A DNA stretch of 64,000 nucleotides from Candidatus Krumholzibacteriia bacterium (GTDB taxonomy: Bacteria > Krumholzibacteriota > Krumholzibacteriia > Krumholzibacteriales > Krumholzibacteriaceae): assembly GCA_963836185.1 (NCBI GenBank), contig CAWIIQ010000001.1, forward strand, positions 1,632,001 through 1,696,000, given 5' to 3'. The notes beneath the pieces were generated by a model. The model ran no database searches. It had not been told where the DNA came from and saw nothing but the letters and a program-made list of their open reading frames with translations. The position numbers were made by a program, and so were the translations under genes. Shown here piece after piece: positions 56,259 through 61,642 of the stretch. The stretch's first letter is position 1; the number at the start of each line of letters is the position of its first letter.

Positions 56259-56828
56259 ATGACACGTCAAAGCTTATATCAATTAATTCTCCTCATCTCG
56301 TTCTCCATTTCTTTGCTGGTCTCATGCACGCCTTCGCCGAGATATCGGAGCGGGACCCAGGATACGCGCACATCGACTCAGGCTCCTTCGACGCAATCAG
56401 ACAAGCCGGGTTCAGGCGACCTCGACATTGTACTGAGCAATCCGCTCAGAGGATCGGGAGGGGGCAAGATAAACAGCCCTTTCGGCATGAGGACCCATCC
56501 ATCATACGGGACCCAGGAATTTCATCAGGGTGTTGATTTCGAGGCGGAAACAGGAGATGATGTATATGCCTCCGCCAGCGGCAGAGTGACTTACGCGGGC
56601 AATCAGAAAGGGTATGGGAAGGTAGTGATCATAGATCACGGCAGGGATATATCTTCCGTATACGCTCATCTCTCTTCGACCGCTGTAAAAAAAGGAGCGC
56701 AGGTAGAATCGGGACAGAGGATCGGCAAGGTGGGAGTAAGTGGAAACGCCACAGGCTCACACCTGCATTTTGAATTGAGAGTTTCGGGAGAAGCGGTCGA
56801 TCCGCTTGATTACATGGAGATAAGATGA
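56259..56828 (+). CDS. M23 family peptidase lipoprotein (NlpD position, no LysM)
   Basis: Lipobox LLVSC; HQGVD and HLHFE zinc motifs. Confidence 0.88.
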   Translation: MTRQSLYQLILLISFSISLLVSCTPSPRYRSGTQDTRTSTQAPSTQSDKPGSGDLDIVLSNPLRGSGGGKINSPFGMRTHPSYGTQEFHQGVDFEAETGDDVYASASGRVTYAGNQKGYGKVVIIDHGRDISSVYAHLSSTAVKKGAQVESGQRIGKVGVSGNATGSHLHFELRVSGEAVDPLDYMEIR

Positions 56829-57649
56829 CCGGAAGGCACCCGGACGACGATATCCAGAGACAGTACTTTAATGATATCAGCAGATATCCCGTACTGACTG
56901 CTGAGGAGGAGAAGGACCTTGCCAGAAAGTCACGTGACGGGGACGAAGCAGCCAGGAAGAAGCTGATCGTAAGCAACCTCAAGCTCGTTATAACCATCGC
57001 GAAATCTTACGCATCCTACGGAGTGCCGTTCCTTGATCTGATCGAGGAAGGCAACCTGGGCCTTATAAAGGCGGTAAGCAGGTTCGATCCGGAAAAGGGA
57101 TTCCGCTTCAGCACATATTCATCGTGGTGGATAAGACAGGCGATCGTCAGGGCCATATCGAATTACTCGAGGACGATAAGGATCCCTATACATGTCTTTC
57201 AGCTCATGTCGAAGTATGTGGGGATTGAAAAATCGACAAAACACGGCACTTCCGAAGAAAAGGCGTCCGCCCTCGGTATATCAAAAAAGAGGTACAAGAC
57301 ACTCGAGCAGCTTGTCCGAAATATCCGGGCCCTCGACCTGTCAAGCTCGATAGATTCATATAGTCAGCTCGCTACAAACATGGAGGCGATCGACCCCTCC
57401 GATCCGGAAAAAATCGTACTCAGCCAGATCGAGCACGAGGAACTGTCGGCGCTGCTCGACCGCTTGTCCGAGAGGGAAAAATTTATAATCAAGGTGAGAT
57501 ATGGATTCGAGGACGGCATACCCAGAACTCTGGCCGAGACCGGAAAACTCATACACGTATCGAGGGAAAGGGTGAGGCAGCTCGAGATGCGCGCTCTGAA
57601 AAAACTGAAATTCCTCGTGGACCCTGAAAAGACAGGCACAAAAGAATAA
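56825..57649 (+). CDS. Sigma-70 family group 2 sigma factor, RpoS-like
   Basis: Regions 1.2, 2 (DLIEEGNLGL, GFRFSTY, WWIRQ) and 4 (SRERVRQLE); lacks region 1.1. Confidence 0.88.
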   Translation: MTGRHPDDDIQRQYFNDISRYPVLTAEEEKDLARKSRDGDEAARKKLIVSNLKLVITIAKSYASYGVPFLDLIEEGNLGLIKAVSRFDPEKGFRFSTYSSWWIRQAIVRAISNYSRTIRIPIHVFQLMSKYVGIEKSTKHGTSEEKASALGISKKRYKTLEQLVRNIRALDLSSSIDSYSQLATNMEAIDPSDPEKIVLSQIEHEELSALLDRLSEREKFIIKVRYGFEDGIPRTLAETGKLIHVSRERVRQLEMRALKKLKFLVDPEKTGTKE

Positions 57650-58243: not shown

Positions 58244-58320
58244 GCCCCCGTAGCTCAGGCGGATAGAGCACCGGTTTCCTAAACCGGGTGTCGCATGTTC
58301 GAGTCATGCCGGGGGCGCCA
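58244..58320 (+). tRNA. tRNA-Arg (CCT)
   Basis: GCCCCCG/CGGGGGC acceptor stem, ccggt-ttCCTaa-accgg, encoded CCA. Confidence 0.95.
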
Positions 58321-58325
58321 TCGCC

Positions 58326-58362
58326 AGAGGGGAGTGGGCTATTCACTCCCCCTCTTCTTTTT
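58326..58362 (+). terminator. Intrinsic terminator after tRNA-Arg
   Basis: agaggggagtg / cactcccctct stem followed by tcttttt. Confidence 0.85.
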
Positions 58363-58630
58363 AAACTCATCATCCCACCCTTTCTACTTACACCCGATAA
58401 TTGCATTATACCGGACAAGCCGCAGAATTACACAGTCATCACATTCTATATTGCATGGCATATTGCATATATCCATCCACCATCCGGCAATATTCTACCC
58501 GGTCCAGGGTAGGGGTGAAGTGGTACGAGATGACGACGCGATATTCTCTATAGGCACTATCTCATACATTTGCAAGGGATTAGCGGGTAGAAAGCTTTCC
58601 AGTGATTTCTCATCATATCTTTTCATCGAA

Positions 58631-58646
58631 AGGCACGAGGTATGCA
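58631..58646 (+). promoter_or_regulatory. Candidate sigma54 -24/-12 promoter upstream of the micropeptide ORF
   Basis: AGGCAC-gaggt-ATGCA, GG-N10-GC spacing. Confidence 0.5.
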
Positions 58647-58711
58647 ATTCCACCAGCAGCCGGACTTCCCGGCACCGGGAGACTGAGAAATTTGCCATGG
58701 AGGTGATCACG

Positions 58712-58768
58712 GTGCTGCCGATACTTTCGATTGTTTTAATCATTGATCTGTTCTGGTGGCTTCGCTGA
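58712..58768 (+). CDS. Putative 18-aa hydrophobic micropeptide MLPILSIVLIIDLFWWLR
   Basis: Strong SD GGAGGTGA 5 nt before GTG; single TM-like sequence; flanked by a promoter motif and a terminator (alternative in-frame ATG at 58697). Confidence 0.5.
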   Translation: MLPILSIVLIIDLFWWLR

Positions 58769-58789
58769 AAATACTCTCGCTCCTGAAAG

Positions 58790-58838
58790 GTAAAACGTTC
58801 CCGTCGATAGGGGTGTATCGGCGGGAACGTTTACTTTA
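58790..58838. terminator. Strong hairpin terminator after the micropeptide ORF
   Basis: 17-bp stem aaacgttcccgtcgata / tatcggcgggaacgttt (one G-U pair). Confidence 0.75.
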
Positions 58839-58953
58839 TCCTCAAGATATGTTTTGTCATTAAAATATCATAATATAATCCACTTTATAAGATAGTCGGG
58901 TTATCCCACTGTTATCACAACACTTGCAAAATGATAATATTTTGATTTTTTTC

Positions 58954-58981
58954 TTGACATGGCCTTCAGGAAGATTATAAT
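58954..58981 (+). promoter_or_regulatory. Consensus sigma70 promoter with AT-rich UP element
   Basis: TTGACA-16 nt-TATAAT preceded by T-tracts; no downstream + strand gene. Confidence 0.75.
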
Positions 58982-58986
58982 AGGCA

Positions 58987-59160
58987 AAAGTTTGGGGCAA
59001 GCGGACTGCGCGATCGTGATTCATCGGCTCCCAAGCCAATCCTATCAAGCGAAGCGATCTTGCTGCTCAGGCCTCTGTAGAGTTGAAAAGACACGTAACG
59101 CAATGTAGTCCGTCTGGTCCCAATAAAAAATGGAGAGTGGTTCGCCACTCTCCATTTTTC
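58987..59160 (+). ncRNA. Putative structured small RNA (rod-shaped; family unassigned)
   Basis: Lies between a consensus promoter and a terminator; ends pair (TTGGGGC/GTCCCAA, GCGGACTGC/GTAGTCCGT, CGTG/CACG, TCGGCTC/GAGTTGA). Confidence 0.6.
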
Positions 59161-59163
59161 TTT
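59125..59163. terminator. Bidirectional intrinsic terminator
   Basis: aaaaatggagagtgg-TTCG-ccactctccattttt perfect stem with A/T tails, between the ncRNA and the convergent PP2C gene. Confidence 0.9.
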
Positions 59164-59179
59164 GCCTGTCTTGAGGTGC

Positions 59180-61642
59180 CTACTTGACCCTGAGGATCAA
59201 AGCCGTCATATCATCCGTTACACTTCCATCCCCGAAAGCCAGTACATCACGAAACAGCTTATCCATCAGTTCGGTCATCTCGAGTGACCTGTTCGACTTC
59301 AGGAATTCGATGATCCTCTCCTCGCCGAAGTACTTTCCAGCGCTCGTTTCCTGGTCGATAAATCCATCGGTGTACGATATGAGCAGATCTCCGCTCCTGA
59401 GCTTGAGAACACCGTTGATGAAACTGGAATCGGGATCGACACCTACAAGGATCCCGCCGCGCTGAAGTTTTGTCAGACTGCCGTCGCCGCGAAGAACGAT
59501 GGGGGGGAAGGCTCCACCATTGCTGAAACGCAGGATTCCTGTCTCATCGTCGTATATGCCGTAGAAAAAGGTGGCGAACCTGCTCAATTCGCTTCTGTCA
59601 TAGAGCAGCCGGTTAAGAGCGGTCAATACCTCCGCCGGAGATCTGGCCTCTGTTGCTTCCGCTCTGAATCCGGCCTGGAGAGTCGTCATCAACAATGAGG
59701 CGGGAATACCCTTGCCGGAAACGTCAGCCACGGCAAAACCCGTTACACCGGGAGCAAGGTCGAGATAGTCGTAGAAATCTCCTCCGACCTCTCTGCAGGT
59801 CCTCATCGCTCCGAGTATCTCGGCGTTCTTCATGACGGGAGGAGAGGCGGGAAGGAGGCGTTGCTGGATCTCGCTCGCCAGATGGACCTCTTCCTCCAGT
59901 TTCTCTTTCTCCTTTGAGTCCTTGTAGAGCAACTTGTTCCTCACCGCCACGGCGCTCCTCTCTCCGAGAAGCTCCAGTATCTCAGCGTCTATCCTGCCGT
60001 AGGGCTTTCCGGAAAGTTTACGTCCGATGACCGCGAATCCCAGAAGGTCGCCATGCTCTACGAGAGGGACGATCACCGATGGATCCGTAAGCGAAAGGAA
60101 TTCTCTCGAAGTCCTGTCGAGGTTGCTGTTGATCCAGATACGATCGTAGTACTCGACCATCAGTGGCATATTTTTTTCCTGTGCTATGGATATCAATGCG
60201 GTATCTCTGGGAAGAGACGAGAGTGGTACCGCCGTTCCTGCCGGGCAGCATCCGGCCATGACGAAATTCCTGCCGCCGTCGCCGAGAAAGATAAGAGCGT
60301 ATCTGGCATCGAACATGTCGCGGAGTGTGCAGGTCACGAATTCCGTCATCTGATCCAGGGAACCATGAGACTGGATACTCCTCGAAAAGTCAAAGACCTG
60401 TTCCCGGAAGATCTTCCTGTTCGTATTGAACATCCTGTCTATCATCCCCAGCAGGCTTATGCGGGCAGGAACGAATATCGCTATCACCAGGACTACGGCG
60501 AGAAACGCGAGGAAGTAATACCGCGCGTCCAGAAAAGCGGAAAAGCTATCTCCCATGATGCCGCTGCCGAATAAAAGAGCCGCGGCGAGAACCGCCGGCA
60601 CAAGTACGAAGAACAATCCTGCCCTGAACACAAAGCTCATATCGAAGGCATCGTGTTTTAATATAGCGTATGCGAAAGAGGCCGATATAAATGACAAAAA
60701 GAGTACCGCCGCGTGCTCATGGGGTATCTGGACACCCGGCAGAAAGAAACGGGTCACCATGATCAGCAGGAGGGGAAGCACTCCAAGCGTAAGTCCGATC
60801 GCGGCTATCCGGAACTTGACCTTCTGGATACGGTCGGAACTCATGTATGTCCTGACGAAGAAGAATACACTCGCCAGCATGTAGAGGAGCCAGTATATGG
60901 ATGTCACTCCGTTGAGCGCGAGTACGAGCCCCCGTTCGATCCCTGAGGAATACCGCAGCATCGCCATGATGAACAGGGCGAGAAATATGAGGGTAGGGGG
61001 GATATACAGAGTCTTTCTTATGAAATACCTGCGGGAACCGGAAGTTATCTCCTTGCCGGGAAAGATCAGGAAGAAGTGAAGAAAGAAGGCAGGAAAGAAG
61101 ACCATGAGGAAGTCGTAGACAAGTTCACCGGCCAGGTGAAAGAACGGCACCTGAGTTACGGGCCTGATCGTGAACAGAAACGCTATGGTTAGACAGTTTG
61201 CCGTAAAGAGGAACCCGAGTTGATCCGGCCTTCTCAGGATCACAACCAGCCCGAGAAATATGAAAGTGAAAGCTGTCAGGCTGTACGCCAGTCTCCTGTA
61301 GACCCTCTTGGCTGGCTGGGGGATGCTCTTTACGGTCACCTCAAGGACTGAATATCCTCTTGCGACGGTGTAGACCTGGGATTCCAGGTCGGGGGTCGAT
61401 TCAGTGAGAAAGCGGAAATGGTTGATGTTCCGGACAGCTATACCATCGACAGCCGCAATCTCATCGCCCCTTTCCAGGCTCAGGCCTACATTGGGGCTTT
61501 CCTTATCGATCTCGAAGAATACGAGGTTATTATGGCGGATTCCGGTGTAGGGGGTATCCGGCAGCCTCGATATCCCCACGATGTCGAGAACAGTGATCAG
61601 AATAGCGCCGGCGATCAGCCCAAATCTGATGAACCTGATCAC
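59180..61642 (-). CDS. Membrane-bound PP2C/SpoIIE (RsbU-like) phosphatase with PDZ, multi-TM and GAF domains
   Basis: SPN..LERGDEIAAVDG (PDZ), many TM helices, GAF, then VGGDFYD, VADVSGKG, YTDG, DDMT. Confidence 0.88.
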   Translation of the reverse strand: MIRFIRFGLIAGAILITVLDIVGISRLPDTPYTGIRHNNLVFFEIDKESPNVGLSLERGDEIAAVDGIAVRNINHFRFLTESTPDLESQVYTVARGYSVLEVTVKSIPQPAKRVYRRLAYSLTAFTFIFLGLVVILRRPDQLGFLFTANCLTIAFLFTIRPVTQVPFFHLAGELVYDFLMVFFPAFFLHFFLIFPGKEITSGSRRYFIRKTLYIPPTLIFLALFIMAMLRYSSGIERGLVLALNGVTSIYWLLYMLASVFFFVRTYMSSDRIQKVKFRIAAIGLTLGVLPLLLIMVTRFFLPGVQIPHEHAAVLFLSFISASFAYAILKHDAFDMSFVFRAGLFFVLVPAVLAAALLFGSGIMGDSFSAFLDARYYFLAFLAVVLVIAIFVPARISLLGMIDRMFNTNRKIFREQVFDFSRSIQSHGSLDQMTEFVTCTLRDMFDARYALIFLGDGGRNFVMAGCCPAGTAVPLSSLPRDTALISIAQEKNMPLMVEYYDRIWINSNLDRTSREFLSLTDPSVIVPLVEHGDLLGFAVIGRKLSGKPYGRIDAEILELLGERSAVAVRNKLLYKDSKEKEKLEEEVHLASEIQQRLLPASPPVMKNAEILGAMRTCREVGGDFYDYLDLAPGVTGFAVADVSGKGIPASLLMTTLQAGFRAEATEARSPAEVLTALNRLLYDRSELSRFATFFYGIYDDETGILRFSNGGAFPPIVLRGDGSLTKLQRGGILVGVDPDSSFINGVLKLRSGDLLISYTDGFIDQETSAGKYFGEERIIEFLKSNRSLEMTELMDKLFRDVLAFGDGSVTDDMTALILRVK

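Follow-up and report, generated by a model that had tools for sequence, protein, structure and literature searches.

A structured non-coding RNA of the Krumholzibacteriota with its own promoter and a tip motif that shares its distribution with an RpoS-like sigma factor

At positions 58954-59163 of the window, by which we mean the whole 64,000-nucleotide stretch of Krumholzibacteriia DNA that was analysed, a sigma-70 promoter is followed by a 132-nt rod and a 15-bp terminator. What kind of gene is this, how widely is it kept and on what might its product act? The original prediction, made from the letters alone, took it for a divergent 6S-like or an undescribed structured RNA, next to an RsbU-like phosphatase gene and near an RpoS-like sigma gene. 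Our analyses show a gene of about 135 bases with its own promoter and a single copy per genome. Its product is a real, phylum-wide structured non-coding RNA (ncRNA) that belongs to none of the tested families, and its rod fold is kept across much of the uncultured phylum Krumholzibacteriota. The features of the locus are listed in Table 1.

Table 1. Features of the ncRNA locus and its surroundings (positions in the window)
Feature	Position	Strand	Remarks
RpoS-like sigma factor	56825..57649	+	Own clade, 'A'; candidate partner from distribution and tree
tRNA-Arg(CCT)	58244..58320	+	Tail-to-tail with the RNA in most other genera
Peptide unit	58632..58832	+	Unannotated conserved gene, not part of the RNA
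Sigma-54-type promoter motif	58632-58645	+	Peptide unit
Shine-Dalgarno sequence	58699-58706	+	Peptide unit
ORF of 18-aa hydrophobic peptide	58712-58768	+	Peptide unit; ends IIDLFWWLR
Conserved hairpin (terminator)	58793-58832	+	Peptide unit
TGATAA box and A/T tract	58932..58953	+	5' of the -35 box; possible UP element or regulator site
Sigma-70-type promoter	58954..58981	+	TTGACA-N16-TATAAT; 12/12 consensus match; boxes kept in relatives
Predicted ncRNA transcript	58988..59163	+	Start placed from the -10 box; RNA-library contigs within 58996-59158
Rod	58992..59123	+	MFE fold and covariation; stems P1-P6
P1	58992-58998/59117-59123	+	Rod stem
P2	59001-59009/59105-59113	+	Rod stem
P3	59010-59012/59099-59101	+	Rod stem
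P4	59015-59021/59090-59095	+	Rod stem with bulged A
P5	59024-59030/59080-59086	+	Rod stem
P6	59035-59037/59070-59072	+	Rod stem
Near-invariant tip motif	59048..59066	+	Bulged hairpin: GCG/YGC, AA bulge, GC/GC, 4-6-nt loop
Intrinsic terminator	59126..59163	+	A tract before, U tract after; 15-bp stem 59126-59159, TTCG loop
Membrane GAF/SpoIIE (RsbU-like) phosphatase	59180..61642	-	In other genera upstream of the peptide-RNA pair

Promoter, transcript and fold

The predicted TTGACA-N16-TATAAT promoter is borne out and is the only perfect one in the 64-kb window; none of 100 shuffled sequences produced another. In a low-redundancy selection of 67 members chosen by us, a TTGAC with a -10-like box was found at most 55 nt upstream of the RNA in every member (67/67), the -10 box being tested loosely. 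Among the BLASTN homologues of family f1 (families of the phylum are labelled f1 to f9), the promoter boxes and the RNA are kept, and the promoter spacer and the terminator sequence drift. The A/T tract described as UP-like is present at 58927-58953. It contains a TGATAA box (58932-58937), which stands 22-24 nt ahead of the -35 box in 13 of the 18 members from the same family and is absent from the 48 others. We take this box to resemble half of a Fur box; it also resembles a divergent -10 box. At the other end of the gene, the stem, loop and U tract of the predicted terminator are all present, the loop being closed by a G-C pair and not conserved in relatives. In family f1 the position of the terminator is kept and its sequence is free, and in most members of families f6, f7 and f9 a U run directly follows the P1 stem itself. 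The terminator is likely shared with the convergent gene.

Metatranscriptomes were chosen for sequence words of 58700-59400 (seven runs from six studies). Short contigs, which give no strand or ends, nor a level to bear out the proposed high expression, and could include carried-over DNA, lay on the RNA body in seven of the eight runs examined, all within the interval given in Table 1, so that the transcript proposed for this locus is represented in RNA libraries. The contig of run X1 is 132 nt long with one mismatch. Adapter sequence is present at both contig ends in X1, X3 and X4, and the library inserts therefore correspond to the RNA body. In run X11 the RNA is covered by no contig, and in X1-X4 close cover of the flanks is lacking; we took neither as a sign of silence. 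Contigs from three studies (X1, X3 and X6) end at 59137, within the 5' half of the terminator stem, which weakly suggests 3' trimming or a library artefact.

All nested stems that had been proposed (P1, P2, GCG/CGC, CGTG/CACG and TCGGCTC/GAGTTGA) are found in the minimum free energy (MFE) fold. The rod alone has a folding energy of -47.7 kcal/mol (z = -2.8), and equal stability was reached by 2 of 200 shuffled sequences. Over 66 members, the mean z is -3.0, with 56 below -2, and the length varies from 116 to 145 nt (median 130). In an unfitted MAFFT alignment of 24 family members, 92% of the cells pair, compared to 28-39% in slid controls. Two-sided changes occur there in 12 of 39 pairs, a number reached in 1 of 500 shuffles, and the covariation score of this alignment was reached in none of 500. 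Model-fitted alignments, which lean toward the model and whose shuffles ignore relatedness, show two-sided changes in 29 of 37 pairs, and in 30 of 37 with 66 distinct members. The stems covary on both kinds of alignment, as the original prediction had proposed to check. The structure counts exclude the metagenome copy L162:1462-1651, whose tip half is duplicated in tandem, probably through an assembly artefact.

The sequence drifts in the lower stems and hardly changes in P4 (CG/CG core), P6 (GCY/GGC) and the tip. The large internal bubble that had been proposed as a central feature is instead an asymmetric loop adjoining the tip, with 4-12 nt on its 5' side in most members and 3-4 nt on its 3' side.

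Relation to known RNA families and distribution

A search of Rfam 15 (4227 families) at E up to 10 gave for this copy four matches to miRNA models, on its hairpins and far below thresholds, and nothing but tRNAs and weak noise for the 12 further member loci searched. The 6S and 6S-Flavo models gave no match to the element at E up to 10. The canonical 6S RNA of this genome (G000, 92.5% complete) is at C1:1727883-1728068 (75.3 bits) and its SRP RNA at C1:2207642-2207906 (191 bits), and its tmRNA is also elsewhere than the element, which is therefore none of the three. As a family assignment, 'divergent 6S' thus finds no support, the length and the central bubble failing as well. The other half of that proposal, an undescribed and independently transcribed structured RNA, agrees with the lack of an Rfam match, the phylum-wide covariation, the conserved promoter and the RNA-library contigs. 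Canonical 6S RNA was found in 133 of the 151 phylum genomes. In family f7 it was detected with strict filters in 1 of 10 genomes, the new RNA in 10 of 10, and 6S may be diverged there rather than lost.

Several other classes were considered and rejected. The element has no Rfam SRP score and no GGAA-loop S domain, and a circularly permuted SRP S-domain does not fit either: compensating changes maintain the GC(Y)/GGC pairing, and the CAGG strand varies between members. A decoy of the CsrB/RsmZ type was discarded, the RNAs having 0-3 GGA each, with CsrA present in 2 of 5 genomes and not found in this one. Bacterial Y RNAs have Ro60 (TROVE) as their partner gene, and Ro60 (PF05731) was not found in this 92.5% complete genome. 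In retrons (msr-msd) the reverse transcriptase gene lies directly downstream; here the flanks are apt/tRNA-Arg and the GAF/SpoIIE phosphatase, and the terminator follows directly after the rod.

The ncRNA is apparently undescribed in the libraries and literature searched. The open full-text literature searched, supplements of structured-RNA surveys excluded, contained no description of an ncRNA for Krumholzibacteriota, and among the matches listed for structured-RNA surveys naming Latescibacteria there was none of the element.

By BLASTN, the element was found in 18 of 24 same-family genomes and in none of 16 genomes of other families. A first covariance model, built from 24 family members, gave matches in 47 of the 151 phylum genomes, and a rebuilt model found one copy in each of 66, from seven families: f1 (25/32), f2 (1/1), f3 (1/6), f4 (5/61), f6 (15/17), f7 (10/10) and f9 (8/9), in addition to the source genome; f5 (0/5) and f8 (0/9) had none. 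A laxer search of 40 chosen genomes without a hit added one clear f4 copy. The position of the locus led to two diverged f3 copies that had escaped the model; they have the same rod (z = -3.7 and -6.0), and two checked misses in f1 are contig ends next to the locus. Synteny disclosed no hidden copy at 27 loci of f4, f5 and f8 genomes. A GC-rich rod beside a tRNA-His/Arg/Pro cluster of an f4 genome (L381:409-531, minus strand) scored 19.5 bits; it lacks a clear promoter and was left out of the counts.

An exact-pattern scan of GTDB species genomes gave 33 loci, the real ones all of the Krumholzibacteria type; 12 in Collinsella, other Actinobacteria and Rhodomicrobium were rejected as chance matches without promoter or rod. 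Among 120 loci from a pattern scan of metagenomes (41 of 64 parts), 20 reached at least 62 bits, and those read resemble the same phylum. For viral contigs, 80 of 120 pattern loci were scored with the model; the best reached 19 bits and none was convincing. No member outside the phylum was identified in these pattern scans, the covariance model having been applied to the phylum genomes and to pattern loci.

The tip motif, the sigma factor and the neighbouring genes

The columns of the tip are identical in 57-63 of 67 members. The predicted apical hairpin fits the members in another register than the proposed AGC..AGCG/TGCT..GCT: of three registers, only GCG/YGC with a 2-nt bulge and GC/GC keeps all five pairs in 60 of 60 motif-bearing members, and it is the lowest-energy register in only 10 of these. 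The hairpin is weak (-0.6 to -5 kcal/mol) and its pairs barely vary, so that covariation cannot confirm them. Elsewhere in the genome, 24 loose matches to the motif were found, none of which was singled out. All six copies seen in family f4 are without the tip motif and keep the promoter, P4, P5 and P6.

The RpoS-like sigma factor encoded nearby matches Pfam regions 1.2, 2 and 4, with no region-3 match. In a tree of all sigma matches from ten genomes and seven more orthologues, its clade A is separate (support 0.999) and includes no member from the seven f4/f5/f8 genomes in the tree. At a cut-off of E 1e-62 or better, this sigma is present in f1 (26/32), f2 (1/1), f3 (5/6), f6 (15/17), f7 (9/10) and f9 (9/9). 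Families f4, f5 and f8 have it in 0 of 75 genomes and the RNA in 6 of 75, all six copies lacking the tip motif. Over the 151 genomes, with f4, f5 and f8 counted separately and the f4 copies left out of the RNA-only class, 58 have both RNA and sigma, three (fragmented assemblies) have the RNA without a sigma match, and eight have the sigma without an RNA match, two of which carry a diverged copy. The mention of an RpoS-like neighbour in the original prediction therefore mattered, as the sigma clade and the tip motif share their distribution.

Where loci of f1, f2/f3, f6 and f7 were read, the sigma gene and the RNA are neighbours. The loci read in f4 and f8 have the M23 peptidase gene abutting apt or are otherwise without the sigma, and apt and tRNA-Arg remain. 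The abutting of M23 and apt means that the sigma gene alone is missing and that it was not lost with the RNA in one shared deletion. In an RpoB tree, f4 and f8 form one clade and the placement of f5 is weak (support 0.32), so that the co-loss of tip motif and sigma amounts to one or two events. Genus g19 has kept the sigma with no RNA at the locus (2/2 loci read), and genus g20 has kept it with a much changed tip. Conversely, the six f4 genomes retain promoter and lower rod without the sigma, and part of the function must therefore be sigma-independent. Any other protein lost in f4, f5 and f8 would fit the distribution equally well, a handful of candidates having been profiled. The geometry fits an open-complex mimic poorly: the first unpaired base after P6 is an A in only 33 of 58 members, and the loop has 4-12 nt on the 5' strand in most members and 3-4 nt on the opposite one. 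Clade-A sigmas keep the basic end of region 4.2, a region cited for 6S binding in passages of PMC3299989; the region-4 residues for this comparison came from parts of PMC4943231.

The gene order in most genera is GAF/SpoIIE phosphatase, a gap of 400-600 nt, the RNA and then, tail-to-tail with it, tRNA-Arg(CCT), apt, the RpoS-like sigma, the M23 peptidase and tRNA-Pro. In this genus the segment with peptide and RNA (58321-59179) is inverted compared to other genera. The peptide gene lies 200-400 nt upstream of the RNA in 55 of 62 members with enough flank, and 53 of 55 have upstream of it a GG-N10-GC motif, which we take to be a sigma-54-type promoter. The relatives' peptides have 14-18 aa and end in D-L-x-W-W-L-R/K, with a conserved hairpin behind. 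The peptide motif is found in 125 of the 151 genomes (reversed-pattern control, 0), including 59 of the 61 f4 genomes, most of them without the RNA, in which the gene stays beside the phosphatase and away from the RNA. RNA contigs of relatives cover 58659-58817 in this unit. No paper on the motif was found in the full-text literature, which leaves aside subscription journals. The phosphatase, present in 133 of 151 genomes, does adjoin the RNA as had been noted, but it travels with the peptide gene, which is nearly always just behind it, and not with the RNA. The peptide is a candidate small-protein regulator of the phosphatase. As a side finding, this near-universal, sigma-54-type peptide gene beside a membrane phosphatase constitutes a second unannotated conserved element.

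Possible function and comparison with known systems

The reading that we favour, with a probability of about 0.4, is that of a regulatory RNA that binds a protein and is linked to the clade-A sigma module, and whose partner may be the sigma, its holoenzyme or a controlling factor. That the RNA binds a protein rather than base-pairs is probable, because a frozen and partly paired tip sits on a drifting scaffold, no Hfq was found and neither of two tested mRNAs is an antisense target. If it does, the odds that the partner belongs to the sigma-A module are slightly better than even. The strong housekeeping promoter would provide an abundant and stable RNA, the long interrupted helix would act as a scaffold whose sequence is free to drift, and the tip would present a bulged hairpin as recognition site to the protein partner, for which the RpoS-like sigma encoded nearby, the RNA-polymerase holoenzyme with this sigma and a factor that controls it are the likeliest candidates. 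Binding at the tip might then sequester the alternative sigma or adjust its activity, much as 6S acts on the housekeeping holoenzyme. A more detailed version is doubtful: a 6S-like RNA dedicated to the alternative sigma, whose rod docks via its tip on the clade-A holoenzyme and determines how strongly a stress regulon is expressed, as part of an ancestral module that comprises phosphatase, sigma-54-driven peptide, RNA and sigma. To our knowledge, the known RNA polymerase-binding RNAs act on the core or the primary holoenzyme.

The same structural evidence would suit a decoy or scaffold RNA with a different lineage-restricted protein as partner; its agreement with the sigma distribution would then reflect shared history. 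The small number of loss events, the counter-examples in family f3 (g19 and g20) and the profiling of a handful of proteins rather than whole genomes speak for it; against it stand the neighbourhood of sigma and RNA in four groups of loci, the change of the f4 tip in the very lineage that lost the sigma and nothing around it, and the profiles of phosphatase and peptide, which differ from that of the RNA. We consider this reading possible but somewhat unlikely. A trans-acting base-pairing sRNA, with the frozen tip as seed on mRNA targets, would equally have its own promoter and terminator and a frozen sequence block, and the weak tip hairpin could open. However, Hfq was not found in any of five genomes (0/5), the longest run complementary to the sigma leader is 7.68 nt in cognate and 7.66 nt in non-cognate combinations (34 pairs, sigma leader only), there is no pairing to the peptide mRNA and the RNA ends are locked in the rod. 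Going by Hfq and these two mRNAs, Hfq-dependent sRNAs were rejected as a class, and base pairing in general is quite unlikely.

An interrupted rod behind a strong promoter could also be an additional 6S-type RNA of reduced length that serves the housekeeping holoenzyme, comparable to B. subtilis 6S-2. Paralogous 6S RNAs are mentioned in portions of PMC8414754 and PMC11077062, and the latter also describes scr0792, an RNA of ~85 nt associated with RNA polymerase. This is nevertheless very unlikely given the failure of the 6S models, the absence of a central bulge with a long apical arm, the canonical 6S already present in most genomes and the length of the new RNA, which falls below the ~160-200 nt stated for 6S in the relevant part of PMC8414754. 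An antitoxin RNA of a type I toxin-antitoxin pair would find its toxin in the short, hydrophobic peptide encoded upstream in most members. But there is no antisense match between the RNA and the peptide mRNA, for which this pairing was rejected as highly improbable: over 54 pairs, the duplex energy is -80.0 kcal/mol in cognate and -80.1 in non-cognate combinations and the longest perfect run is 7.1 nt, as in shuffles (7.1 nt), and the peptide persists beside the phosphatase in f4 genomes, mostly without the RNA. There is next to no chance that the locus is a small-protein gene or a cis-regulatory leader instead of a free RNA. This genome has a GTG frame of 30 codons at 59016, but 1-2-nt indels break it in relatives, where the P4-to-P4' distance ranges from 70 to 78 nt; these indels exclude a protein product and agree with the original view that there is no convincing ORF. 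Furthermore, the rod is directly followed by a terminator or U run, and in most cases the gene beyond it is convergent.

As a proposed decoy with a conserved hairpin for a protein, the RNA resembles the protein-titrating sRNAs CsrB/RsmZ and GlmY, which are constitutive or regulated and have a conserved protein-binding hairpin; unlike CsrB/RsmZ, with their repeated hairpins, it has one tip motif on a rod. Chlorobi-1 and Acido-Lenti-1 of Rfam are also phylum-restricted orphan ncRNA motifs with promoter and terminator, to which no function is assigned, whereas the new RNA matches no Rfam 15 family. It is uncommon for a new conserved ncRNA family of bacteria to combine a promoter of its own with covarying stems and support from RNA libraries. 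This one occurs in most families of its phylum, for which the literature searched describes no RNA biology.

With 6S (RF00013; B. subtilis 6S-1/6S-2) it has in common a free-standing, interrupted and largely double-stranded rod, a strong promoter, a structure kept more than its sequence and the proposed action on the transcription machinery. It differs from 6S in being shorter (116-145 nt), in having an asymmetric loop at the tip with a 5-bp hairpin beyond instead of a central bulge with long arms, in its frozen tip motif, in its coexistence with canonical 6S and in a distribution that tracks an alternative sigma. E. coli 6S, according to passages of PMC3299989, does not bind the sigma-S holoenzyme. 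The sections of PMC11077062 available to us describe two RNAs of Actinobacteria, Ms1 (~300 nt) and CoRP (~516 nt), that bind core or primary holoenzyme, and the sigB 3' RNA, an earlier case of a structured RNA bound by an alternative sigma. Like these and scr0792, the new RNA is lineage-restricted, structured and of the kind missed by bioinformatic 6S searches, and CoRP is also located among tRNA genes (PMC11077062); no sequence relation to any of them was shown, and binding is only proposed for the new RNA. Should it bind the alternative sigma or its holoenzyme, it would represent a new class among the RNAs that control the transcription machinery, beside 6S, Ms1 and CoRP, and would indicate that RNA decoys can be sigma-specific.
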